From IMG/VR virus record IMGVR_UViG_2713896902_000006: 34,781 nt of DNA; one strand, 5' to 3'. Positions 323 to 32,613 of this stretch are shown piece after piece (positions within the stretch are counted from its first letter, which is position 1; every line of letters starts with the position of its first letter). Below the pieces are notes generated by a model. It did no database searches, was not told the DNA's origin, and saw only the letters and a list, made by a program, of their open reading frames with translations. This stretch comes from a virus (lineage: Duplodnaviria > Heunggongvirae > Uroviricota > Caudoviricetes). Position numbers and translations under genes: made by a program.

Positions 323-712
323 TTACTCTTTTTTCTCCGTATCTGCATCGGGTTCATCAGCAAATAGCTTGCCCTGCATCCGATCCAGTTCTTCTTTTCT
401 TACCCGCTTAACCACGCTGTAGACCCACTGAAGCGAAACACCAAATTTGCGGGCCAGTTCGTGGTGGTTGCGTCCGTTAAACTCCCTGAAGATTTCCCGG
501 TCGCGCTGACTGACCTTCCATACCATGCCCATCGGGAAATAAACGTTTTGCCCGCCCCAGACCTGCATCATTCGGTTCGCGACGGCCTGACCAATCTGGT
601 CGGCAATTGCGGGCTCAATATCAATAATCTCGCGAACGGTCTCAGAGGTATGCTGTGCCAGTTCCACCAGGAGTTCCGGCCCTTTACTTCGAAACTGATT
701 CAGGTCGCTCAT
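323..712 (-). CDS. mor: Mor/C-family transcriptional activator (middle or late operon regulator)
   Basis: 129 aa, same length class as Mu Mor; C-terminal HTH-like segment (ARKFGVSLQWVYSVVKRVRK); last gene of the early operon directly after the GemA-like gene; GGGAG RBS 6 nt upstream of ATG. Confidence 0.7.
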   Translation of the reverse strand: MSDLNQFRSKGPELLVELAQHTSETVREIIDIEPAIADQIGQAVANRMMQVWGGQNVYFPMGMVWKVSQRDREIFREFNGRNHHELARKFGVSLQWVYSVVKRVRKEELDRMQGKLFADEPDADTEKKE

Positions 713-1136
713 GTTTTACTCCCGTAGCTCTGCGCTGCCACTTCTTCAGTTTCTCAATAACACTGCTTGCCTGTTCAGTACTGAGCCAGCGCAGGGCGCT
801 GATGCCCGTTTCCCGCTTGATCCACCGCGCTAATGCATTTTCTGAACGGTCACGAACAATGCCGGCAGCAGCCATTTCAAGCCATAGAGCACGGATTTTC
901 CTGGACTGCGGATGGTTATCCTGCTGTAAACCGGAGCTGGCTTTTCCGGCAAGCTTAACGCGAAAGCCTTTCCTTTTCATGGATTCCAGCACGCAGTTTA
1001 GTTGTGTGGTATCCATTCCTTTGGTTGAGGCTTTACCGGTCAGCCCCTCTAACATCTGGCGGTAGGTGTCTTCATCCATACCCAGTTCATTACGGGCAAT
1101 ATGAATGAGCTGGATAAGACGTTGTTTAGTCATCAT
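684..1136 (-). CDS. gemA: GemA-like protein (Mu gp16 family)
   Basis: Position immediately upstream of the Mor-like gene as in Mu; start placed at internal ATG 1136 (MMTKQRL...) because it has an AGGAG RBS, whereas the 1175 ATG has none; family call from recollection of Mu GemA. Confidence 0.55.
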   Translation of the reverse strand: MMTKQRLIQLIHIARNELGMDEDTYRQMLEGLTGKASTKGMDTTQLNCVLESMKRKGFRVKLAGKASSGLQQDNHPQSRKIRALWLEMAAAGIVRDRSENALARWIKRETGISALRWLSTEQASSVIEKLKKWQRRATGVKHERPESVSK

Positions 1137-1341
1137 CGTTGCTCCTTTTACCTGCGCCACCGATATAATCGACATATAAAGGAAGCGCCACAGGCCAGCA
1201 CAGGAACATCACCGACCAGCTAATCCAGTAGCCGGCACCACTGTAACGTGAATAAAACCCTGAACGGCGGTGCAGTTCAGCAGTACACCAACCGACAAAA
1301 CAATACCAGAACAGGGCACTTACAACAGATTCAGCAGTCAT
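1126..1341 (-). CDS. small hydrophobic protein (two predicted TM segments), hypothetical
   Basis: Internal ATG of ORF 1126..1497 preceded by a G-run; hydrophobic stretches FWYCFVGWC and WISWSVMFLCWPVALPLYV; compact coupling with neighbours. Confidence 0.35.
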   Translation of the reverse strand: MTAESVVSALFWYCFVGWCTAELHRRSGFYSRYSGAGYWISWSVMFLCWPVALPLYVDYIGGAGKRSNDDD

Positions 1342-5120: not shown

Positions 5121-6890
5121 TCAGTTGCCGTTAACAATGCTGATAACACTGCTGCGGGCCGGCGTGGTCAGCGTGGCCATGACTTCATCCAGTGCGGCTT
5201 CCGGTACGCCGTCCGGGTACTGTGCCGTTAACTGGCGGTAATGTTCCGGCGTCCAGGTAAGGCCGTTGGCGCTGAACTTCCCGCGCAGGGCTTTCGCGGC
5301 CTCCACATGAGTCATGGGACGCTGTTCAGTGCGCGGTCCGCGTACGTCAGAGGCCTGACCTCGCTTCGGCATATAGGCCGGAAGTGTGGCGTCATCAATA
5401 TGTTTATACGGGTCAAGCCGCCCGCCGAACGGCAGCGCCTTCGCCTTGCGTGCGGCAGCTGCATCTGCGGCGTTGTCTGTACCGGTGACCAGCTCTTCGG
5501 TTTCTTTTGCCGCCATCTGCGCCGGGGTTTCCGGCAGGGCTTTGTAACTTTCGCCAAATACCGCCGCGCCTTCAGCAAAGCCAAACTCGTTCTTTCTGAC
5601 CTCTTCGACCAGGAAGAACGTCTCGTGGCCGTCCTCACCGGTCAGAACCACCTGTGCCACATCGCTGCGCCACGGGTTACGGGTAATCATCAGTTTTTCA
5701 CCGACCAGTACGCCCGGTACCGTTGATACGTCAAATTCAGTGCCCCGGAACGAGACACGAAGTTTTGGCGTGACTTTGCGGAGTTCTGGTGCCGCCACAG
5801 CCAGTTCACGACATACCTCAACGGAAGGCGCTTTTTTCAGCTGCTCAGCAGTAATCTTCAGCCAGATATCCGTGCGGGTTTTACCGTGGCGGCTGTGAAC
5901 AGCCGTGGCGTTAAAGTGGCTGCGCCATTTCGCGGCCAGCGCGTTGAGTTCTTCCAGACTGTGAACCGGCCGGAACTTCAGACCCGGCTCCAGCTTGCGT
6001 TCGATAATGTCTCGCGCCTTTTCCACCTGTCCGGTGGCGCGGGCGTTATGCGGCTTGTGCGCTATCAGGTCAATGCCCAGTGAGCGGCACATGTTTTTCG
6101 TCATACCCGCGGTGTTTGCCGAGCCGGGGTCGAGATAGAGTATTTTTGGCACGCCGTGCAGCACGTCTGCGCCGCCACGCTCCTGCATGGCGTTGATAAG
6201 CACAGAACACAGGTTCTCACCAGATTCCGCACCCGTCACATACTCAACGTAAATCCAGCCGCTGGCATGGTCGGTAATCTCGTAACTCCACACGCGGTCA
6301 CTGGCGATACGGGCAAGGTTAGCTGGCTTGTTCTTGTAGAACTTTGCGCTGTCCATCACCTGCAGCCCTTTGTGCCCATTGCTCAGGTAGTAAAGCGTGC
6401 AGAGTGAGGCGTCAATCTGCCAGACATGATTGGGATGCAGACTGGCCACTTCGGTATGCGGTGCAGGGGCATCCAGTTGTTCCGGGTGCAGGCCATAGTT
6501 ACGCAGGGCACGGCTGATGGCATCTTCAGACAACGGGAAAAACTCACCGGTGGTTTCATCTGTTCTGCCTGCGGTGATAAAGCCGTTAGCCCGCAGGGTT
6601 TCCACTGCATCTGCGATGGAATAGAGGCGCTTACCGTTCTTGCGGGTGGCCTCACGCAGTGTGGCAGATATTAGCGCGGCTTCGTCGCGGGTCAGGGTGC
6701 TGCGTCCGGCATCGGCGCGTTTTTTGCGTTTATCAGTCACAGAGACCTCCTTCAGCCTGCGCAGCAGAGTGGCGCGGGACATGCCAAGTTCAGCACAGGC
6801 AGCGTCGTATATTGCACCGCGTTTACCATGCCCCGCGTCACGTGCCGCGCGGGCGACATAAACCAGTCGTTCAGTCAGGGCAGCATTCAT
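5121..6890 (-). CDS. DDE transposase, rve/integrase-core type (phage transposase A)
   Basis: 589 aa; N-terminal HTH; catalytic-core-like segments HVWQIDAS and LYLDPGSANT; GGAGG RBS; followed by the AAA+ partner. Looks rve/Tn552-like rather than MuA-like by eye. Confidence 0.85.
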   Translation of the reverse strand: MNAALTERLVYVARAARDAGHGKRGAIYDAACAELGMSRATLLRRLKEVSVTDKRKKRADAGRSTLTRDEAALISATLREATRKNGKRLYSIADAVETLRANGFITAGRTDETTGEFFPLSEDAISRALRNYGLHPEQLDAPAPHTEVASLHPNHVWQIDASLCTLYYLSNGHKGLQVMDSAKFYKNKPANLARIASDRVWSYEITDHASGWIYVEYVTGAESGENLCSVLINAMQERGGADVLHGVPKILYLDPGSANTAGMTKNMCRSLGIDLIAHKPHNARATGQVEKARDIIERKLEPGLKFRPVHSLEELNALAAKWRSHFNATAVHSRHGKTRTDIWLKITAEQLKKAPSVEVCRELAVAAPELRKVTPKLRVSFRGTEFDVSTVPGVLVGEKLMITRNPWRSDVAQVVLTGEDGHETFFLVEEVRKNEFGFAEGAAVFGESYKALPETPAQMAAKETEELVTGTDNAADAAAARKAKALPFGGRLDPYKHIDDATLPAYMPKRGQASDVRGPRTEQRPMTHVEAAKALRGKFSANGLTWTPEHYRQLTAQYPDGVPEAALDEVMATLTTPARSSVISIVNGN

Positions 6891-8124: not shown

Positions 8125-8345
8125 GACGCCTCCTTAAGGATACCGGGGGTAACTTCTTTACCTATTGCAACCGATAGATCTCGCAAAATCCGATAAGTCA
8201 AACGACCGCGAGGTAGTTCACTTTTACCAGCCCAGCGACTGACTGCCTGGGTGACTGTTCGTGGTTCATAGCCCGCGTTAAGCGCGAACTGGCGCAAGCT
8301 ACTGCCTCGTTCAACCAGCCGTGCCCGAACTTGTTGTTTGTTCAT
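8121..8345 (-). CDS. ner: Ner-like DNA-binding protein (Nlp/Ner family)
   Basis: About 74 aa; HTH-like LRQFALNAGYEPRTVTQAVSRW; first gene of the early operon, divergent from the repressor; ATG 8345 preferred over GTG 8351. Confidence 0.6.
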   Translation of the reverse strand: MNKQQVRARLVERGSSLRQFALNAGYEPRTVTQAVSRWAGKSELPRGRLTYRILRDLSVAIGKEVTPGILKEAS

Positions 8346-8433
8346 ATGCACCGTGTTCCTGTTAGGTTATGATGTACTCTATTGGGTCTATTGTACACAC
8401 CCAAATGAGTGTGTCAAATTGAGATATGTTCAA
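8346..8433. promoter_or_regulatory. divergent early promoter/operator region between ner-like and repressor genes
   Basis: 88-bp AT-rich spacer between divergent starts; direct repeat CAAATGAGT at 8402..8410 and 8431..8439 (second copy overlaps the repressor ATG). Confidence 0.4.
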
Positions 8434-8841
8434 ATGAGTACAAAAGAGAGATTGCGTGAAGTGATGGATGCTAATGGCATGACAATAAAGGCATTATCTG
8501 ACTTATCAAAAATTCCATATCGCTCACTTCAAAACTATTTGCGTGGAGAGAGAGAACCAAACGCAGAGGCTCTTGTTGCGCTAAGTACCCATTTGGGTGT
8601 ATCGATCGATTGGCTACTTACCGGTAAAGAACATATTCCATCTAAAGAAATTGTTGCTGTACCAACACAACATCAATTCAGCCCGTCAGACCTTAAAATG
8701 CTTGAACTTCTAAACCAGTTAGATCCTGAGGTTCGGCGAGATCTCATGCGAGGCGCTGAAGAAAAACAGCGTGTGATTGAGATGGAAAAACAACTGAAGG
8801 AATTATCCGCAACGATTGAGCGGTTAAAAAATGTGGGTTAA
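8434..8841 (+). CDS. phage repressor, XRE-family HTH
   Basis: 135 aa from ATG 8434; HTH TIKALSDLSKIPYRSLQNYLRGEREP...LVALSTHLGVSIDWLL; divergent from the early operon; AT-rich codon usage. Confidence 0.7.
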   Translation: MSTKERLREVMDANGMTIKALSDLSKIPYRSLQNYLRGEREPNAEALVALSTHLGVSIDWLLTGKEHIPSKEIVAVPTQHQFSPSDLKMLELLNQLDPEVRRDLMRGAEEKQRVIEMEKQLKELSATIERLKNVG

Positions 8842-8911: not shown

Positions 8912-9919
8912 ATGTCTGAGCAGACCATTGAAGTTAAACACGTTGTAGTTCACATTTTAGACAAACAACAAAATGGAGACGCTTCTGAGAGATTGAGTCC
9001 TGAAGAAGGTCTAGTTACTGAAGCCTCTCAGCGCCTTATAAACGATATTTGTGCAAAATATGCAGGACGCACAGGTAAAGGTTATGGCTATTTTGAAGGC
9101 GATACGGATAACTATCCTATGGAACGAATGGCTGGGGACTTTCTCGAAGGTGTTGATGATTTCTACCAAAGTTCCTGCCGAATGATGCATCACCTGACGG
9201 AACGTTCTCAGCGAGAAAACATGGCTACTGGTGGTTATGTTCTTTTTGCAAATATCGTGATAGGACACAATGAACACCTGTTGATAGCTATTGTAAGCGC
9301 TACCATTGGGTCCACTGTCACAGATGATTTTAACATCCAAGATAGTACCTACCTTGATATTGCTAAGCTGCGTATGGCTGGGCGCATTGACTTAACCGCG
9401 TGGGAAAGTGGCGCAGAGCGCTATATCAGTTTTCTTAAGGGGCAAGGTAATGTTTCAAACTATTTTAAACAGTTCCTCGGCTGTAATGATGTCTTAATCG
9501 CCAAACGAGAGTCTGAAAAGTTACGTGACGTTTTAAAAGCATTTGCGGCAGAGAAAGGACTTGACGGCGCTGAAAAAGATGCATTTCTTAAGAGTGCGTT
9601 TGAACACTTACATGCACTAAGTAAGGCTGGTGAACCACTTAGTCTTGAAACCCTTGTTAATGCCATTTGGCCCCAGGCTCCCGAGGAGTTATCTGGTAAA
9701 CTTGCTGCTGAAGAGTTGGAGTTATCGGATGGCTTCGTTCCTGATGGTCGAGTCATTCGGGCTCTGGTATCTTTTAAAGGCAAGTCTAAATATTGGGAAC
9801 TTAAGTTTGACCGGGAAGGGAAAACTGAAGGCTATATTGATTATGATCCGGAAACAAATATTATCACCCTACGTAATGTACCTGAAGAATTTAGGGAAAT
9901 GTGGATGACTGAGGTTTAA
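8912..9919 (+). CDS. YejK/NdpA-family nucleoid-associated protein paralogue
   Basis: 335 aa, the same length as E. coli YejK; shared blocks recalled from YejK: GG(Y/F)VLF, YLDI, (G/A)RIDLT.WE, RY(I/L).FLKG, and a C-terminal block ending DP.T..(I/L)T(L/I). AAGGTGG RBS. Confidence 0.7.
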   Translation: MSEQTIEVKHVVVHILDKQQNGDASERLSPEEGLVTEASQRLINDICAKYAGRTGKGYGYFEGDTDNYPMERMAGDFLEGVDDFYQSSCRMMHHLTERSQRENMATGGYVLFANIVIGHNEHLLIAIVSATIGSTVTDDFNIQDSTYLDIAKLRMAGRIDLTAWESGAERYISFLKGQGNVSNYFKQFLGCNDVLIAKRESEKLRDVLKAFAAEKGLDGAEKDAFLKSAFEHLHALSKAGEPLSLETLVNAIWPQAPEELSGKLAAEELELSDGFVPDGRVIRALVSFKGKSKYWELKFDREGKTEGYIDYDPETNIITLRNVPEEFREMWMTEV

Positions 9920-9921
9920 TC

Positions 9922-11127
9922 GTGGCGATTTCATTTGAGATGCTGACAGCTCTGTATCGTCGTATGGAATTCCAAGAGGGGTTTCGTGTCGGTTCGCTGT
10001 TGCTCTTAGATCAGTCCGATTGTGATCTGGTTGATACTTTGCTTGATGATCCTCGTGAATATGGTCTTTCTATTGATACAGGCACTATCGCTCCAGGTAA
10101 CACGATCATCCTACGTGTGACGTCACCACGGAGTGGACTGGGACTTGTGTTTTCCACCCATGAAAAATTGCTAAATGCTCCAAAGCATCAGTGCCTTGAG
10201 CCAGCTAATTACTTCATCCTAGAAACAAAATTTCGTAATGATGATGAAGATATCCCCGTTTTCATCAGCAACTACCGGAAGATTCTCGAGTTCGTTAACC
10301 TGCTAAAAGAGGCCGCGGCCTACTTTGATAACTCAACTTGTCAGTTAGTTTTTCTGAAAAAAGAAGTTATCAAGCTATTACCGCACTTCGCTGCAGAAAA
10401 TGTACAAAATTTGCAAAGGGAGTATCTTGATAACCTTATAGCTTGTTTCAATGATGATACCCATAAGGATCAGAAGCTAGATATTCTGATTGAAAGTATC
10501 CAAGCAGTTAGTGATGGAATTGATTCACCTCTAGTATTCGCTTATTTACTGGACAATATTCAGCGTCTGCATGAAAAGTTTCTGAAAGGGTATCGTATCT
10601 ACTCTTCTGGATTCTCTTATGACAAAGTAATGGATCAACTGCGTGCTGCAAAAGTCGAAGAAATGGGTAAAATCCACAAAGCGTTTTCAGATATCCAGAA
10701 CCATATACTTGGCATTCCTGTTGCCTCTGTTATCGTAGCTACCCAATTCAAAGTGGCTACGAAATGGTCAGGCCAAGGGATAACAAACACAATAATTCTT
10801 CTGGGATGCATTTTTGCTGCAACGTTAATCTGGCTGGCACTTTCGAACCAGATGCAATCTATAAAGGCCTTAGGCGAAGAAATTGAATACAAAGAAAAAC
10901 AGATTAATAAGGAATATTCCTTCATTAAAGATGACGTGGCTGGTGTATTTAGCAGTATTTCTGCGCGACTAGACACGCAGAAACGTACGTTCTGGATTAT
11001 ACGTGGTGTTCTAGTTATGGGAATTATTACCGCTATCACTGTTTATTTTTGGTACACAAAACCAGCCCTTGACTTCATGCAGTACTTGATTCACTGCATG
11101 AAGTCTTACTATTCGGTCAAAAGTTGA
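9922..11127 (+). CDS. hypothetical protein with two C-terminal transmembrane helices (partner of the NdpA-like gene)
   Basis: GTG start 2 nt after the upstream stop with GAGG RBS; 401 aa; hydrophobic segments ITNTIILLGCIFAATLIWLALS and FWIIRGVLVMGIITAITVYFWY near the C-terminus; very AT-rich. Confidence 0.6.
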   Translation: MAISFEMLTALYRRMEFQEGFRVGSLLLLDQSDCDLVDTLLDDPREYGLSIDTGTIAPGNTIILRVTSPRSGLGLVFSTHEKLLNAPKHQCLEPANYFILETKFRNDDEDIPVFISNYRKILEFVNLLKEAAAYFDNSTCQLVFLKKEVIKLLPHFAAENVQNLQREYLDNLIACFNDDTHKDQKLDILIESIQAVSDGIDSPLVFAYLLDNIQRLHEKFLKGYRIYSSGFSYDKVMDQLRAAKVEEMGKIHKAFSDIQNHILGIPVASVIVATQFKVATKWSGQGITNTIILLGCIFAATLIWLALSNQMQSIKALGEEIEYKEKQINKEYSFIKDDVAGVFSSISARLDTQKRTFWIIRGVLVMGIITAITVYFWYTKPALDFMQYLIHCMKSYYSVKS

Positions 11128-11887
11128 GGATAATGAGTTCCTTCTTGCGACTGGATTTGCCAGTGATCTTGAGGTTGTAGCTGATATCAACCGACTGAAT
11201 ATTTAGACCGTTGAATGCCTGCCGCATTTCCGGGATATCGTTCACCGATATAATCATATTCCCTTTGATCCTGCGTGCTAAATCTGCCATATGATCATAA
11301 TTTTCTAGTCCGAACTCCACACCATAACCTTCCGTTCCCCAGTATGGAGGGTCACAGTAGAACAACGTATGCGGGCGATCATATCGTTCTATGCACTGTT
11401 GCCAGTCCATGTGTTCTATGACCGTTCTGGAAAGCCGCAGGTGTGCCGCTGACAGTTCATCTTCAATACGCAGCAGGTTGAAGCGTGGCGGGGATATGGT
11501 GGAGGTACCAAAGCTGTGCTCCGCCACCTTGCCTCCAAACGCCTGCTTCTGAAGGTAGTAGAACCGTGCTGCACGCTGGATATCCGTCAGTGTTTCTTCC
11601 GGGGTGATCTGCAGCCATTTGTAGATCTGCCGGCTGACCAGCGCCCATTTGAACTGGCGTACAAATTCTTCCAGATGATGTTTTACCACCCGATACAGGT
11701 TCACCAGCTCACCGTTGATATCATTAATGACTTCGATCTTGCCGGGTACCTTAAGAAAATAGAGCGCTGCTGCCCCACAAAACGGCTCCACATAACATTC
11801 ATGCGCCGGAAACAGCGGCAGGATGTGTTTTGCAAGGCGGCGTTTGCCACCAATCCATGGAACGATGGGTAATGTCTGCATTTTCAT
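11117..11887 (-). CDS. dam: DNA N6-adenine methyltransferase, Dam-like (orphan)
   Basis: DPPYW catalytic motif and EPFCGAAA SAM-binding-like motif; 256 aa; no adjacent restriction endonuclease; 3' end overlaps the convergent cassette gene by 11 bp. Confidence 0.8.
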   Translation of the reverse strand: MKMQTLPIVPWIGGKRRLAKHILPLFPAHECYVEPFCGAAALYFLKVPGKIEVINDINGELVNLYRVVKHHLEEFVRQFKWALVSRQIYKWLQITPEETLTDIQRAARFYYLQKQAFGGKVAEHSFGTSTISPPRFNLLRIEDELSAAHLRLSRTVIEHMDWQQCIERYDRPHTLFYCDPPYWGTEGYGVEFGLENYDHMADLARRIKGNMIISVNDIPEMRQAFNGLNIQSVDISYNLKITGKSSRKKELIILNF

Positions 11888-12030: not shown

Positions 12031-12134
12031 AAAGCCATCATGCAGTGCACGTTTACATCTTCACTATTAACGCTGTTTAAAATCCGTATCCCGCCACATT
12101 TGTGATGCTGTCTCCACCAAACGAGGAGACACAC

Positions 12135-12485
12135 ATGAAAAACCTGAAAAAATTCATTCCCCCTGTTAAAAAACCTCGCCTCAGCGGCTGGCTGCTGACC
12201 TCAGTGCTGTTGCTGGGCATCATCGCTCTGGTCTCGCCACAGCAGTTGCCTGTTGTGATCTACAAGCTGGCACTCATCACGCTGGCAGCAGTGCTGGGTT
12301 ACTGGCTTGACCGTTCGCTCTTCCCCAAAGCCCGTCCCGGTCAGTACCTGAAACATGACGACAGACTGATGGCTGAAGGGCGTTTCCCTGTGCAGACCGG
12401 CCTTCACCTTGTATTTTCTGCTGCGTTAATCCGCCGTGCACTGATTGTTGCAGCAGTCTGTCTGGCCGTAGCGATGGGGCTTTAA
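12135..12485 (+). CDS. putative holin (multi-TM small membrane protein)
   Basis: 116 aa from ATG 12135 with GAGGAG RBS; several hydrophobic segments; immediately precedes the endolysin with a TAATG overlap. Confidence 0.55.
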   Translation: MKNLKKFIPPVKKPRLSGWLLTSVLLLGIIALVSPQQLPVVIYKLALITLAAVLGYWLDRSLFPKARPGQYLKHDDRLMAEGRFPVQTGLHLVFSAALIRRALIVAAVCLAVAMGL

Positions 12486-16630: not shown

Positions 16631-18123
16631 TGGCGAGGGGTATCTGGGTTTCACCCGATGAATTTGTTGCTTTTTCTGAGCCTCAGAAATCACTGACCGC
16701 GCAGATTGCCTCCCGCAGCCGCGCGATCGACTTTTACGGACTGGGCATGTATCTGCCCAATCCTGATCCCATTCTCAAGGCTCAGGGACGGGATATCCGT
16801 ATCTACCGCGAACTGCGCACCGACCCGCTGGTTGGGGGCTGTATCCGCAGACGTAAAGCAGCGCTCAAATCACTGGAGCGTGGACTGGAGCGCGGTCACG
16901 CTTCTGCCCGGGTCTTCCGTTTCATCCGCGACATGCTCGACGATCTGGATCTGTCCCGCATCATCGGTGAGATGAGTGATGCCGTGCTCTACGGGTATCA
17001 GCCCTGTGAAATCATGTGGGGCCGTTCGGTCAGGGCGTGGGCAGTGACGGATATTGTCGGCAAACCGCCTGAGTGGTTTCAGTTTGATACGGACAACTGC
17101 CTGCGCTTCCGGGCACGTGATGCGGGTGTGGAGGGTGAGCTGCTGTCACCGTCAAAATTCGTGGTGCCGGCACAGGATGCCTCGTATGACAATCCTTACG
17201 GTTTCCCGGACCTGTCCATGTGCTTCTGGCCGGTCGCCTTCAAGAAAGGCGGGATGAAATTCTGGCTCCGCTTTGCCGAAAAGTTTGGCTCCCCGTGGGT
17301 GATCGGTAAGCACCCGAGGGGTGCAAATGATGCAGAGATTGAAAAACTGCTGGACTCCATGGAGCAGATGGTGGAGGACGCGGTGGCCGCCATCCCCGAT
17401 GACAGCAGCATCGAACTCAAAGCCGCGGATGGTAAGGCGGACAGCAGCGAGGTATTCCGCGAGCTGATCACACTGTCACGCAGTGAGATCTCCATTGCAT
17501 TACTTGGTCAGAATCAGACCACGGAAGCGAACAGTAACAAGGCCTCTGCACAGGCCGGGCTGGAGGTAACGGCTGATATCCGCGATGCGGATGCGGACAT
17601 CATTCAGGCAGCAGTGAATCAGGTTATCAGAACGGTGGTCACCCTGAACTTCGGCGATGTGCCGTGTCCGGTCTGGGCCATGTGGGAACAGGAGACCATT
17701 GATGACACCCGCGCCACCCGCGACGAAAAACTCACCCGCGCGGGACTGCGCCTGACCCCGCAGTACTTCATGCGGGAGTACCAGCTGCAGGAGGGGGATA
17801 TTGACCTCTCTGATGCACCGGTTGCGGACGGGGCAGTGCCTGCGGAATTTGCCGAGGCGATAAGCGCCGATCATGATGCACAACAGCAGCTTGACGACGC
17901 GCTGGACATTCTGATGAACGGAGGTGTGTTAAATAGCACGCTGGAACCCGTCCTGGCACCTCTGTTTAAGCGGGTCGAAAATGGGGTTAACCCGTCTGAG
18001 CTGCTGGGCGAACTGGCGGAGCTCTACCCTCAGATGAACACGGACGATCTGCAGGAACGGTTGGCCCGCATTCTCTTTGTGGCAAATATCTGGGGGCGTC
18101 TGCATGAGCGTGACAACGGCTGA
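16630..18123 (+). CDS. portal protein (Mu gp29-like)
   Basis: 497 aa; TGATG overlap with terminase; canonical position between terminase and head morphogenesis gene. Confidence 0.75.
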   Translation: MARGIWVSPDEFVAFSEPQKSLTAQIASRSRAIDFYGLGMYLPNPDPILKAQGRDIRIYRELRTDPLVGGCIRRRKAALKSLERGLERGHASARVFRFIRDMLDDLDLSRIIGEMSDAVLYGYQPCEIMWGRSVRAWAVTDIVGKPPEWFQFDTDNCLRFRARDAGVEGELLSPSKFVVPAQDASYDNPYGFPDLSMCFWPVAFKKGGMKFWLRFAEKFGSPWVIGKHPRGANDAEIEKLLDSMEQMVEDAVAAIPDDSSIELKAADGKADSSEVFRELITLSRSEISIALLGQNQTTEANSNKASAQAGLEVTADIRDADADIIQAAVNQVIRTVVTLNFGDVPCPVWAMWEQETIDDTRATRDEKLTRAGLRLTPQYFMREYQLQEGDIDLSDAPVADGAVPAEFAEAISADHDAQQQLDDALDILMNGGVLNSTLEPVLAPLFKRVENGVNPSELLGELAELYPQMNTDDLQERLARILFVANIWGRLHERDNG

Positions 18124-18925
18124 ACTGGCGTACTGCATGACGCTTCCCCCGAAGCGGGCAATCAGCTACCTGAAGTCCAAAGGGTATCAGATTACCTGGG
18201 ACTGGGAAGAAATGTGGCAGGAAGCCCATGCCCGCGCCTTTACCGTCGCTAAAGTGACCCGCCTGGATATCCTGGAAGATATTCGTGGGGCACTGCAGCA
18301 GGCTGTCGATGAAGGAAAAACCGATCGCTGGTTCCGACAGGAGCTGGAGCCGGCGCTGAAGCGCAAGGGATGGTGGGGACCGCGTGACACGACTGACCCG
18401 GTAACGGGTGAGCCGGTCACCATTCAGCAGGGCAGTCCGTGGCGGCTCGATACCATCTTTCGCACCAATATGTCCGTACTCTACAGCGCCGGTCGTTGGG
18501 CGGAACAGATGGAAAACGTCGACGACAGGCCGTACTGGATGTATACCGGCATCAACGACAGCCATACCCGCAGGAGCCATCTGGCGCTGCATGGTCTGGT
18601 GCTGCGCTGGGATGACCCGTTCTGGCAGGCATTTTACCCGCCGAAAGGCTGGCGCTGCCGCTGTAGTGTGATTGCCCTGAGTGCGGCGGATGTCCGTGCC
18701 CGTGGCCTGAAGGTTATCAGCTCCGGCTCTGCCATGGGCCAGGAACTGAAACTGGTCTCAGAGAAAACCGGCGAAATGCGGAACGTGGCCACCTTTAATA
18801 CCGGCACCACGAAGGTGACCACCGACGTCGGCTGGTCTTATGCACCGGGGGCAGCATACCGTCCCGACCTGGCCCGCTATCAGGGTACGCTTCAGCCACT
18901 GGCACAACAGGAACTGAGAGGATAA
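18104..18925 (+). CDS. head morphogenesis protein (Mu F / gp30-like)
   Basis: About 273 aa from internal ATG 18104; position after the portal; resemblance to the Mu F family is recalled, not searched. Confidence 0.6.
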   Translation: MSVTTAELAYCMTLPPKRAISYLKSKGYQITWDWEEMWQEAHARAFTVAKVTRLDILEDIRGALQQAVDEGKTDRWFRQELEPALKRKGWWGPRDTTDPVTGEPVTIQQGSPWRLDTIFRTNMSVLYSAGRWAEQMENVDDRPYWMYTGINDSHTRRSHLALHGLVLRWDDPFWQAFYPPKGWRCRCSVIALSAADVRARGLKVISSGSAMGQELKLVSEKTGEMRNVATFNTGTTKVTTDVGWSYAPGAAYRPDLARYQGTLQPLAQQELRG

Positions 18926-19386: not shown

Positions 19387-19432
19387 GTTTTCTCTCTTCA
19401 GGCGGGTGATTTATCATTGCCAGCGAATGAGG

Positions 19433-19474
19433 GGCTGTATTACCTTTATAAAGGCTTTACAGCCTCTGTTTTAT
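19433..19474 (+). terminator. near-palindromic 32-bp element (GGCTGT-ATTA-CCTTTATAAAGG-CTTT-ACAGCC) followed by T-rich tract; terminator and/or activator-binding site in the G-I intergenic region
   Basis: Read directly; central perfect 12-bp palindrome CCTTTATAAAGG at 19443..19454; outer arms GGCTGT/ACAGCC; then TCTGTTTTAT. Confidence 0.35.
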
Positions 19475-19600
19475 AACCGCCTCCGGTTCACCGCATTGCT
19501 TTCCCTGTCCTTCTCCCCTGATGTTTTCTAAAGCAGATTAAAATCGCCGGGCCTGCATTTCTCACAAACTGTCTCCGACAACATAACGCGGGACAGCAAA

Positions 19601-20716
19601 ATGTCAGCCATTCACATTTTTAAAGCCGGTACTCATACCGATATGCACGGCAAAAAACTGCCGTTCACGCCAGACGATCTTGCCGCCTGCGTGAAAGCCT
19701 ATGACCCGTCCGTCCATGAAGCACCACTCGTGATTGGTCATCCCAGAACGGAAGACCCGGCGTGGGGCTGGGTGAAAGCCCTGTCGCTCAGCGGCGTCGA
19801 TCTGATGGCAGAGCCTGCCCAGCTGGACCCGCAGTTTGCTGAGATGGTCACCGACGGACGATTCAAAAAAGTGTCCGCCTCTTTCTACCTCCCGGATTCA
19901 CCGTCCAATCCGAAGCCCGGCGTGCTCTACCTTCGCCATGTGGGCTTTCTCGGGGCACAGCCACCTTCCGTCAAAGGGCTGAAACAGGTGTCCTTCAGTG
20001 AGCAGGAAGAAGGTGTGGTGGAGTTCGCCGACTGGCAGGCCATCACGAATGCCTCCCTGTGGGGAAAGCTGCGCGATTTTCTGATCGCCCGCTTCAGTCT
20101 GGACGAGGCAGAAAAAGTCCTGCCGGAATGGCAGCTCAACAGTCTGCGCGAAGAGGCGTACCGCGACACACTGTCGCAGGATGCAGCAGGTGCACAATTC
20201 AGTGAGACAGGCCCGGGGCCGTCTTCCGCAAGTAACGAGGAATCATCGATGACAAAAGAAGAGATTGAAGCCCTTCAGGAGGAGAACCGCCGCCTGAAGC
20301 AGCAGGCTGCTGATCGCGATGCGCGTGATGCACAGGTCAGACAGGAGCAACTGCATAAGGACAATGTGGCCTTTGCAGAAAAACTGGTCGCAGAGGGGCG
20401 TCTGGCTCCCCGCGCCTCCTCCGTGGTGGTTGCCCTGCTGGATGCCGTCGCCGGTGGCGACAAGCCGGTGGAGTTTGCTGAGGGGGAAAGCCGCACACCG
20501 CTGGCCACCGCCTTCCGTTCATTGCTCTCCGACGGGGAGCCGGTGATGAACTTCGCCGAACAGGCCACAAAGGATCGTGTCGGCGACGCGGTGAAGGTGG
20601 ATGTGGCGGAGTTTGCGGAAGCCGATCCTGAGCGTCTGGCCCTGCATCAGAAAGCAGTGGCCCTGTCCAAAAAAGAAGGCATCAGCTATGAGGCTGCTGT
20701 CGCACGCTGCCTGTAA
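19601..20716 (+). CDS. head maturation protease/scaffold (Mu I-like)
   Basis: 371 aa; position before the major capsid gene; C-terminal coiled-coil (EEIEALQEENRRLKQQAADRDARD). Confidence 0.65.
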   Translation: MSAIHIFKAGTHTDMHGKKLPFTPDDLAACVKAYDPSVHEAPLVIGHPRTEDPAWGWVKALSLSGVDLMAEPAQLDPQFAEMVTDGRFKKVSASFYLPDSPSNPKPGVLYLRHVGFLGAQPPSVKGLKQVSFSEQEEGVVEFADWQAITNASLWGKLRDFLIARFSLDEAEKVLPEWQLNSLREEAYRDTLSQDAAGAQFSETGPGPSSASNEESSMTKEEIEALQEENRRLKQQAADRDARDAQVRQEQLHKDNVAFAEKLVAEGRLAPRASSVVVALLDAVAGGDKPVEFAEGESRTPLATAFRSLLSDGEPVMNFAEQATKDRVGDAVKVDVAEFAEADPERLALHQKAVALSKKEGISYEAAVARCL

Positions 20717-25135: not shown

Positions 25136-25417
25136 GTGAGTGTTGAACTGACTGACAAAGGAGGGCGATGTGCGTCACTGGGCATGTCAAATGGTACGTG
25201 GTTTACCCTCCTTGATATTCCGGGGGTGGAGACCCTCTTTAATACCCGTAAAACCAATGACCCGATTGACTGCACACGTTCAAAGGCCCGCAAACTGGCC
25301 GATTTGATTGAAGCATGGGAGCCGCCCGACCACTGGTTCTCCGGCACCGGCAAATCTGAGGGAAAGGCGCTTCTCATCGCTTTCCTGCGTAACTGCAAGG
25401 GTTTTCGCACTTGCTGA
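25136..25417 (+). CDS. questionable small ORF (GTG start) between tube and chaperone genes
   Basis: 93-aa ORF with no convincing RBS; terminator-like hairpin just downstream; could be non-coding spacer. Confidence 0.2.
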   Translation: MSVELTDKGGRCASLGMSNGTWFTLLDIPGVETLFNTRKTNDPIDCTRSKARKLADLIEAWEPPDHWFSGTGKSEGKALLIAFLRNCKGFRTC

Positions 25418-25423
25418 CATCAC

Positions 25424-25450
25424 AGGGGCTCCGGCCCCTTCTTCTTAATC
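25424..25450 (+). terminator. rho-independent terminator-like hairpin (AGGGGC-tccg-GCCCCT) followed by T-rich tract
   Basis: 6-bp GC-rich stem with tetraloop at 25424..25439, then TCTTCTTAATC; sits between the tube and chaperone genes. Confidence 0.4.
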
Positions 25451-25514
25451 CCCTTTAATATCCGTCACGTCCACCGCCAGACATACTGCTCTGAATTTAC
25501 AAAGGAGTATGATC

Positions 25515-25850
25515 ATGTCACAGACCCAGTCCGATACTTTTACGCTGTCTTATCCTTTCACCACTGCTGCAGGTACCAGAATTGAACAGATTGAACTGAA
25601 ACGCCTGACAGTAAAAGACCTGAAGCAGGTGCGCAAAATCAACAAAGACCCGGCAGACTGGGACGAACCACTGATTGCCCGTAGCACCGGTATCCTCCCG
25701 GAAGACCTCGATAACATGGATCTTGCCGACTATATGGAGCTGCAGAAACGATTTCAGAAAATCACTGGGCTGGGCAAGAGCGACAAAAACACTGATGCAG
25801 GCGCAGGGCCTGCTGGCGAGATGGTTCAGGTTTCAACCGGGGGAGATTGA
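25515..25850 (+). CDS. tail assembly chaperone (P2 E-like)
   Basis: About 111 aa from ATG 25515 (AGGAG RBS, 7-nt spacing); immediately upstream of the tape measure gene; overlapping alternative-frame ORF suggests a frameshift product. Confidence 0.6.
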   Translation: MSQTQSDTFTLSYPFTTAAGTRIEQIELKRLTVKDLKQVRKINKDPADWDEPLIARSTGILPEDLDNMDLADYMELQKRFQKITGLGKSDKNTDAGAGPAGEMVQVSTGGD

Positions 25851-31237: not shown

Positions 31238-31318
31238 TTTTTCAAGTATGTGACTCCATTTCCTCTCCCGCGGATATGATAGAATTTTTTAATTAACACT
31301 AATTTGGCGGGGACTTAA

Positions 31319-32194
31319 ATGCGGTTATCAAGATCCTTATGTAAAGTAGTTGGCGATGTCATTGCTAACTCAGGCTCTCATGCAGCTTTAGATACGTTAT
31401 TTCTTACTTCGGGAGCACCAGGAAACCCTCCGGCAGGATCTCATAGTACAAAATGGAAAGACTGGTTATTTCTTGCAGGGCAAGATCCAGATACAGATAG
31501 TCTGGCAGTTCTGGGCGGAGTAATTGAGGAGTTTATGGATTTACCTCCAAAAGAAGGTACTCCCGAATATGCAGAATGGAAGGAAAAACGAGACAGAATT
31601 GAAGCTGTGTTACAAGAGAATGGACTTAGATATTATCGTTTTGGTCGAGTGTTGCCTGAAGGCCACATCCCGTCACACAATATGGATTACCCAGAGACCA
31701 TAATTACTTATCAACAGCCAGTAATGCCAGAAAAAGTTGAGAACTTACTGGAAAGGCTGGTCAAAGGCTTACAGCGAGCAATGCATCCACTTACTCATAG
31801 GCGAAAAGGAAGCCAGTCATTATCTTTTAGCAATGAATATGACGTGCAAGACCTTCTCCATGCATTGCTCAGACCATGGGTTCAGGACATCCGCCCAGAA
31901 GAGTTTACTCCAAGTTACGCTGGTTCAAGTACTCGAATGGATTTTTTGTTACCTGCGCATAAATTAGTACTGGAAACCAAAATTGTTCGTGATCGTTCTC
32001 ATGCAAAGAAAATCGGCGATGAACTTATTATCGATATAGAGCATTATCGTCAGCACTCTGATTGCAAAAATCTCTGGTGTGTCATCTACGATCCGAACCA
32101 GTTTATTACTAATTCTGAGGGGCTGAAATCTGATCTTGAGGGGAAGAGAGTTTCTAAAGACGGAGAACTTATCGTCAAGGTTTTCGTAATTTAA
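31319..32194 (+). CDS. AT-rich moron ORF; protein with C-terminal PD-(D/E)xK-like nuclease motif pattern, function unknown
   Basis: 291 aa; inserted between V and W, which are adjacent in P2; flanked by 81-bp and 71-bp AT-rich non-coding spacers; C-terminal E (NEYDVQDLL), D (RMDFLL), ExK (VLETKIV) pattern. Confidence 0.6.
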   Translation: MRLSRSLCKVVGDVIANSGSHAALDTLFLTSGAPGNPPAGSHSTKWKDWLFLAGQDPDTDSLAVLGGVIEEFMDLPPKEGTPEYAEWKEKRDRIEAVLQENGLRYYRFGRVLPEGHIPSHNMDYPETIITYQQPVMPEKVENLLERLVKGLQRAMHPLTHRRKGSQSLSFSNEYDVQDLLHALLRPWVQDIRPEEFTPSYAGSSTRMDFLLPAHKLVLETKIVRDRSHAKKIGDELIIDIEHYRQHSDCKNLWCVIYDPNQFITNSEGLKSDLEGKRVSKDGELIVKVFVI

Positions 32195-32265
32195 CAAACG
32201 TATCAATAACTCCTTTTTAAATCCCTTTAATATCGTTCTTTTCTTACTGGGGCAATACTGCCCCC

Positions 32266-32613
32266 ATGAAAACGACCTCAGTATTCTGGCAACCGGCTCT
32301 GCAGGCTCCCGGCGAAATCGTCCGGGGGCTGGATGATATCCAGCAGTCCATCCAGATCATCCTGCGGACTCCCCGCGGCAGCGACCCGCATCGCCCAGAG
32401 TTCGGCAGCAATCTGCACCTTTATATCGACTGGCCTGTCGACCGGGCCATTCCGCATGTGGTTCGCGAATCCGTCGATGCCATCAGGCGCTGGGAACCCC
32501 GCTGCCAGCTTATGTCGGTTAAACCCGCCGTCGACGGCGAACATCTTACGCTCCGGGTGAGCTGGAAAGGCTCAGACGGACAACCCCGTACTCAGGAACT
32601 GCTATGGCGCTGA
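32266..32613 (+). CDS. baseplate assembly protein W (P2 gpW-like)
   Basis: 115 aa; ILRTPRGS and WEPR blocks as in gpW-type proteins; followed by an overlapping J-like gene. Confidence 0.75.
   Translation: MKTTSVFWQPALQAPGEIVRGLDDIQQSIQIILRTPRGSDPHRPEFGSNLHLYIDWPVDRAIPHVVRESVDAIRRWEPRCQLMSVKPAVDGEHLTLRVSWKGSDGQPRTQELLWR

Follow-up and report, generated by a model that had tools for sequence, protein, structure and literature searches.

In phages of the P2/186/P4 system, late transcription depends on four sigma-70 promoters that lack a -35 element and need an activator, namely Ogr, Delta or B. The activators of phage P2 are zinc-finger proteins and bind a TGT-N12-ACA element near -55. The tail promoters of this phage precede V and FI. 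A different kind of control is found in IS10 and IS50, where bases lying shortly before the start of the element's own transcript pair with the ribosome-binding site. Transcripts that enter from outside, and no others, fold back in this way and stay untranslated.

The late promoters of phage Mu carry -10 hexamers and lack -35 ones (PMC2582627). The Mu C protein binds a 16-bp imperfect dyad that is centred at -43.5 and overlaps the -35 region (PMC2582627), and the consensus of the MuC box is TTAT-N5-6-ATAA (PMC12867686). Reporter constructs of the Mu promoter Plys covered the promoter bases -52 to +8 or -60 to +8 (PMC2582627).

Here, we analysed a stretch of 34,781 nt of phage DNA, called the window below, in which a short motif is repeated upstream of two tail genes. 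Judged from the sequence, and with a probability of roughly 80%, the motif makes up the right-hand part of a box at which an activator of sigma-70 late promoters binds. Four such promoters are predicted in the window and resemble those of Mu in their architecture.

A BcepMu-like prophage with a single Mor/C-family activator

By its gene content the window is a Bcepmuvirus-type (BcepMu-like) transposable prophage with the gene order of BcepMu. In a sequence comparison, the surroundings of both motif copies are about 90% identical to Escherichia phage PhiKM (Bcepmuvirus) and similarly match a prophage-like clone deposited as Klebsiella phage KP12. A test stretch of the Bcepmuvirus-type prophages was matched in 636 of the 5426 complete E. 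coli genomes. The gene blocks are as follows.

Minus strand: early operon with the transposase gene (5121..6890), gam, gemA (684..1175) and, as the last one, the Mor-family gene.
323..712, minus strand: Mor/C-family transcription activator of 129 aa (Pfam Mor PF08765, E 1.3e-43).
From about 12100, plus strand: late genes for the holin, transglycosylase, terminase, portal and head, continued by the P2-like sheath and tube, the chaperone, the tape measure, U, X, D and V, and finally by W, J, I and the fibres.

The gene at 323..712 encodes the sole Mor/C-family activator of the window and lies beside gemA, as in Mu. Its product shares 31-37% identity with Mu Mor and C and 54% with BcepMu gp01. 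The HTH segments of the window and BcepMu activators are nearly identical (ELARKFGVSLQWVY against ELARKFGVSLQWIY). This Mor homologue is the candidate for the protein that binds the box described below.

Near the C-terminus of the homologue, residues 113-117 read QGKLF, and BcepMu gp01 has QRDLF at the same place. Both resemble QPDLF, the C-terminal clamp-binding motif reported for the Mor/C family (PMC12867686). Elsewhere, two accessory ORFs of 335 and 401 aa lie within 8912-11127 on the plus strand, between a putative repressor gene (8338-8841, with HTH matches) and a methyltransferase gene. The 401-aa one has a weak KwaA-like match (PADLOC E 8e-5).

Four copies of a composite element

Copy 1 of the repeat reads AATCCCCTTTAATATCCGT at 25447-25465 and copy 2 reads AATCCCTTTAATATCGT at 32220-32236, both within 1-2 nt of the places given in an initial annotation of this DNA. 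That annotation took the repetition as a sign of shared function, and the repetition is indeed beyond chance. In the window, CCYTTTAATAYC with at most one mismatch has 4 matches against 0.21 expected, and the 15-mer of the motif with at most three mismatches has 5 matches against 0.5 expected. The two copies are real, but the count of two falls short, as four related copies exist, the others at 12067-12109 and 19528-19570.

The copies belong to a composite element. It consists of a T-rich run, the box (T/C)TAA-N6-TTAA-WATC, 23 variable nt, a -10-like hexamer nAnnCT and then G. The late region is tightly packed except for four gaps, each of which opens a late operon and holds one composite element, always on the plus strand. 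The elements are designated promoters P1 to P4 in the order of the operons.

12067..12109, plus strand: P1 of the lysis operon, with box TTAACGCTGTTTAA, 23 nt and hexamer GATGCT, before the holin gene; transcript start predicted near A12116, SD GAGGAG at 12123-12128 and holin ATG at 12135.
19528..19570, plus strand: P2 of the head operon, with box CTAAAGCAGATTAA, 23 nt and hexamer CAAACT, identical to the hexamer of Mu PI; the downstream gene, with its ATG at 19601, is the equivalent of Mu I.
25445..25462, plus strand: activator box of P3, containing copy 1, TTAATCCCCTTTAA; its parts are TTAA (25445-25448), TCCCCT, TTAA (25455-25458) and TATC.
25482..25487, plus strand: predicted -10 hexamer CATACT of P3, followed by G; transcript start predicted near A25494, SD AGGAG at 25503-25507 and chaperone ATG at 25515.
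32217..32234, plus strand: activator box of P4, containing copy 2, TTAAATCCCTTTAA; its parts are TTAA (32217-32220), ATCCCT, TTAA (32227-32230) and TATC.
32254-32259, plus strand: predicted -10 hexamer AATACT of P4; the W ATG is at 32266, 6 nt on.

The four hexamers, GATGCT, CAAACT, CATACT and AATACT, each lie exactly 23 nt past the box. With the start set at 7 or 8 nt past the hexamer, the box is centred at -42.5 to -43.5 relative to this predicted start and overlaps the -35 region. The -35 position reads WATCSG, where a TTGACA-like hexamer is absent and a generic sigma-70 scan gave no match.

YTAA-N6-TTAAWA matches at the four promoter sites only, with 0.11 matches expected, and the palindromic box at P1 and P4 also matches the minus strand. 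A looser search, allowing up to one half-site mismatch and a hexamer at 22-24 nt, returned exactly four matches, all of them on the plus strand with 23-nt spacing; the chance level for the composite, from shuffles with the spacing fixed at 23 nt, averages about 0.2. Two look-alikes, at 25235 (CTCTTTAATACC, in a 93-aa ORF) and at 18791, were rejected, being within coding sequence and lacking both the first half-site and a hexamer at +23.

Two start codons deserve a remark. The chaperone ORF has in-frame ATGs at 25509 and 25515, and the latter is the likely start because the SD AGGAG lies 7 nt from it versus 1 nt from the former. In the longer holin ORF, the Pfam domain starts at residue 27.

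The same layout in Mu and in relatives

The positions of the Mu promoters were taken from the GenBank promoter features and checked against the literature on the C box and Pmom. The four annotated late promoters of Mu all read ATAA, 24 nt and then a hexamer, which is TAGACT in Plys, CAAACT in PI, TATCCT in PP and TAAGAT in Pmom. In this register Pmom reproduces its published -35 (ACCACA), 19-bp spacer and centre at -43.5. A late-promoter or activator site had been among the functions first suggested for the motif, and this suggestion gains support, as the dyad box is placed as in the Mu Mor/C promoters and a Mor-family activator is encoded.

Relatives were collected in three sets of 80 loci each, namely IMG/VR loci round the sheath gene, IMG/VR loci round the lysis genes and loci from GTDB species genomes (Enterobacterales, Burkholderiales, Neisseriales and others). 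Their four upstream regions show two conserved blocks with free sequence between. The element is kept in 231 distinct promoters of Gamma- and Betaproteobacteria, ranging from Enterobacterales to Burkholderia and Chromobacterium. These promoters were anchored on the half-sites alone, so the hexamer result is not built in.

Among the 231 promoters, the first base of the first half-site is T (58%) or C (31%), followed by T (99%), A (94%) and A (98%). The second half-site TTAA is 97-100% conserved, and the 19 nt past the half-sites are nearly free, at 0.1-0.5 bit per position. The hexamer then has A at position 2 (92%), C or A at position 5 and T at position 6 (93%), and the next base is G in 83%. 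Although rich in G+C, BcepMu of Burkholderia carries these boxes upstream of its holin, I, chaperone and W genes as well.

The copy 2 site reads AAACGCCTTTAATATC in most relatives, and the near-identity of the two 17-mers is judged to be partly specific to this lineage. A T-rich run had been noted beside each copy. Such a run is part of the composite, but the one after copy 2 is not conserved in relatives. Table S3 of a dRNA-seq study of B. cenocepacia J2315, where the prophage was uninduced, lists no starts at the BcepMu late promoters.

Terminator and hairpins

A GC-rich hairpin accompanies each copy, as first noted, but the two lie on opposite sides of the motif and appear to have different roles, so they are not equivalent.

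25424..25446, plus strand: predicted intrinsic terminator before copy 1, with stem-loop AGGGGCTCCGGCCCCT (25424-25439) and then TCTTCTT.
32249-32264, plus strand: P4 hairpin GGGGCA/TGCCCC (GGGGCAatacTGCCCC), downstream of copy 2, -11.1 kcal/mol.

The hairpin before copy 1 folds as RNA with -12.8 kcal/mol (z -3.1) and was also found by a terminator scan. As a predicted terminator, it ends the transcription unit of the head, sheath and tube genes. Its T-tract merges into the T-rich flank of the P3 box. Through compensatory changes, relatives keep a hairpin and a T-run before P3 with other stems (GGGGCTTCGGCCCC, GGGAGCCTTACCGCTCCC and GGGGCCTGGTGGCCCC, and GGCCCGCttcgGCGGGCC in BcepMu).

The terminator is an element separate from the box, because it is 16 nt further off in one clade. 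In Mu Pm, the promoter feature overlaps a predicted terminator, and an activator site at the hairpin before copy 1 was considered by this analogy. It was rejected, given the unconserved stem and the same 16-nt shift. Another terminator-like hairpin is located upstream of P2 at about 19430-19468.

The predicted -10 hexamer lies inside the P4 hairpin, and 1 nt separates the hairpin from the W ATG. The hairpin is kept across lineages with differing stems, such as GGGGAT/GTCCCC, GCGGC/GCCGC, AGCGCC/GGCGCT and GAGGGC/GCCCTC. These variants were folded one by one, the MAFFT alignment being out of structural register for the divergent sequences. No family of Rfam was matched anywhere in the window.

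The W ATG lies 6-8 nt past the hexamer in 68 of the 69 distinct W promoters from Gamma- and Betaproteobacteria (loci L167-L247), and there is no SD. From this spacing only, the P4 transcript is predicted to start at or next to the AUG, yielding a leaderless W mRNA.

Accessory genes upstream of the promoters

Both copies have accessory DNA upstream and a core tail gene downstream, just as the initial annotation described. For copy 1 these are the 93-aa ORF and the chaperone gene, and for copy 2 a nuclease moron and the gpW (gp25) gene.

25136..25417, plus strand: 93-aa accessory ORF with a weak DUF7739 match below the Pfam cut-off.
31319..32194, plus strand: moron encoding a 291-aa protein with a C-terminal DpnII/MboI-type nuclease domain (Pfam PF18742, E 3e-47).

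The moron protein also matches the Aga_Helical-REase (Argonaute-associated helical-REase) of PADLOC with E 1.7e-30. The inserted DNA extends from 31238, past the V stop codon (31237), to about 32212, short of the P4 box. In 64 of 65 loci V and W are separated by 51-63 nt, all of it promoter sequence, and only in the window does this gap reach 1028 nt. Matches covering the moron (at least 80% of the stretch) occur in 12 of the 636 matching E. coli complete genomes.

The insertion ends just upstream of about -52 of P4 and leaves -52 to +1 intact, which matches the extents of the Plys reporters (PMC2582627). The box pre-dates the insertion, since moron-free relatives have it too, in a short V-W gap of 54-63 nt. 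At the left end of the moron there is no duplicate of the box, only TTTTT microhomology. Judged from these comparisons, the nuclease moron was inserted just upstream of a pre-existing promoter and the motif is not a recombination site.

The tube-to-chaperone slot before P3 (24612-25515 in the window) is variable, measuring 101-669 nt across 79 loci. It holds unrelated sequences among relatives and ends in every case with the conserved terminator and P3.

A candidate extended -10 promoter of the moron gene, tgaTAGAAT, is seen at about 31275-31290. A type II methyltransferase is encoded at 11117-11887 on the minus strand (PADLOC MTase_II, E 1e-114), and the PhiKM record has a DNA adenine methylase annotated in the corresponding accessory region. 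The moron nuclease and the methyltransferase could make up a split restriction-modification-like or defence pair.

Predicted fold-back pairing at P1-P3

At P1-P3, a segment that begins at hexamer position 5 or 6 and reaches about +1 can base-pair with the SD or the surroundings of the start codon. The pairing spans 12104-12137, 19565-19603 and 25482-25517 in the window. Its z-score is -3.4 at P1 and -4.5 at P2, and weak at P3 (-1.2). Plys and PI of Mu have the same pairing layout (10444-10492 and 18018-18060) with z-scores of -3.4 and -4.7.

The pairing is present in all the distinct leader variants (23/23, 25/25 and 31/31) and persists where the leader is 14-30 nt longer (loci L220 and L073). 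At P2 it shows compensatory changes together with G-U intermediates. If the promoter model holds, the anti-SD arms are missing from promoter-initiated RNA and present in read-through RNA only.

Tentatively, and at odds somewhat below even, the Mu-like late promoters may therefore carry built-in insulation. Read-through RNA, coming from lysogenic genes, morons or leaky terminators, would fold back and stay silent, while promoter-started RNA would be translated. The leaderless W at P4 would be the extreme case. There the AUG would stand at the predicted +1, and the read-through RNA would form the covarying hairpin that ends at the AUG.

Discussion

The motif would consist of the promoter-proximal half-site, the spacer and the adjoining bases of a 14-16-bp dyad, (T/C)TAA-N6-TTAA-WATC. 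This box, centred about 43 bp before the transcript start, would be the target of the sole Mor/C-family activator. Once bound, the protein would recruit the host sigma-70 RNA polymerase to a promoter with a weak -10 (nAnnCT, then G) and no -35. We infer the binding of the Mor homologue, the positions of the transcript starts and the dependence on the activator from sequence.

The four promoters would divide the late genes among them. P1 would serve lysis and packaging, P2 the head, sheath and tube, P3 the tail chaperone and the tape measure through gpV, and P4 gpW, J, I and the fibres. With the activator encoded at the end of the early operon, P1 to P4 would be turned on by early transcription with no step in between.

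Several observations go against the promoter model. The box departs from the TTAT-N6-ATAA of Mu and lies 1 bp closer to the hexamer. The second half-site overlaps a good-looking -10, TAATAT or TAAAAT, and the covarying RNA hairpins begin inside the predicted -10 hexamer. Since they begin there, RNAs covering that region must matter, and the promoter model then needs read-through transcripts. The overlap and the hairpins are taken up by an alternative in which the motif itself holds the -10, overlapping the second TTAA, and RNA synthesis begins about 7 nt beyond it. In that case the conserved nAnACTG and the hairpins would belong to the 5'-UTR as RNA elements, such as anti-SD structures opened by a phage factor. 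TAATAT as the -10 was our initial reading and, besides the good match of both hexamers to a -10, two facts speak for it: a Pectobacterium-type clade has TTTACAATT, in which TTAA is broken yet TACAAT is created, and the downstream hairpins covary, the G-U intermediates seen on the sense strand meaning that they act as RNA. It was rejected as the main model after the comparison with Mu and the 231 relatives, and we now hold it unlikely. The would-be -7 base is T in 58% of the 231 distinct promoters but G in 38%, most head-operon promoters reading TAAAAG and others TAATAG, TAATAC or TAATAA. Moreover, the alternative leaves no role for the first half-site 10 bp upstream or for the exact 23-nt spacing to the hexamer, nothing resembling a -10 is present at the corresponding box of the Mu late promoters, and W would get a structured leader lacking an SD.

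Two further explanations, both proposed at the outset, are far less probable. That the motif is a recombination or insertion hotspot marking moron acquisition is suggested by the accessory DNA directly upstream of both copies, with the nuclease moron abutting the P4 box, and by the varying length of the tube-to-chaperone slot. The accessory genes do lie directly upstream of promoters, and this part of the proposal stands. However, the coincidence of moron boundary and motif breaks down in the relatives, where the box sits in the identical place with no insertion, and the box is not repeated at the other end of the moron. The same box also precedes the lysis and head operons, and there are simple functional grounds to expect that cargo survives between operons. 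We therefore give the hotspot very little credence. An RNA-level signal in a polycistronic late transcript, that is, a processing or protein-binding site, receives slightly less still. The motif does lie between cistrons and adjoins RNA hairpins, but its conservation has the pattern of a dyad DNA site with 4-bp half-sites one helical turn apart and a free spacer. Besides the lack of an Rfam match, the P3 motif sits downstream of a terminator and the box is upstream of the predicted transcript start, which disfavours the RNA processing site originally offered.

The activator-box reading of the motif yields a testable late-control map for the Bcepmuvirus-type prophages, with four promoters, a box, a -10 type and a one-activator cascade. 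It assigns the motif to a well-known kind of phage control element, of which the box sequence itself was not found described. In the literature searched, to which the original BcepMu paper did not belong, no earlier description of late promoters or Mor sites in BcepMu-like phages was found.

The box differs from that of Mu in sequence and keeps the geometry, so it should be useful for work on DNA recognition by Mor/C proteins. The map also suggests that accessory genes are tolerated between the end of an operon and about -52 of the next promoter, with late expression unbroken. The predicted leaderless gpW and the anti-SD arms between -10 and +1, the latter seen at Plys and PI of Mu too, would interest a wider field if they are confirmed.

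Among the known systems, the locus compares best with Mu. Both have their own Mor/C-family activator and four late promoters, with 4-bp half-sites that have a 6-bp spacer and are centred near -43, where they overlap the -35 position. Both have a weak nAnnCT-type -10 without a -35, CAAACT being common to Mu PI and P2 of the window. In both, a terminator directly precedes a promoter, and Mu has predicted terminators before Plys and PI. The assignment to the Mu type rests on this architecture, not on sequence identity.

The differences from Mu are also clear. The box (T/C)TAA-N6-TTAA-WATC is unlike the MuC consensus and thus no MuC site in the strict sense, and its distance to the hexamer is 23 nt instead of the 24 nt in Mu. 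This non-Mu sequence fits the divergent HTH of the activator, and the box and the HTH are both common to BcepMu. The window has one activator and no separate middle stage, whereas Mu has the Mor-dependent middle promoter Pm. The window promoters precede the chaperone E and W genes, other sites than in Mu, because the tail module is P2-like.

The likeness to the P2/186/P4 system lies in the number and type of the late promoters, as predicted here, and in the P2-type tail gene set that they drive, which is very similar in the window. Unlike in that system, neither a zinc-finger activator nor TGT-N12-ACA is involved, and the window promoters stand before W and E. Finally, the P1-P3 hairpins share the fold-back layout of IS10 and IS50. 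There the layout belongs to a transposase gene, whereas here the fold-back is predicted at internal late promoters of a phage.
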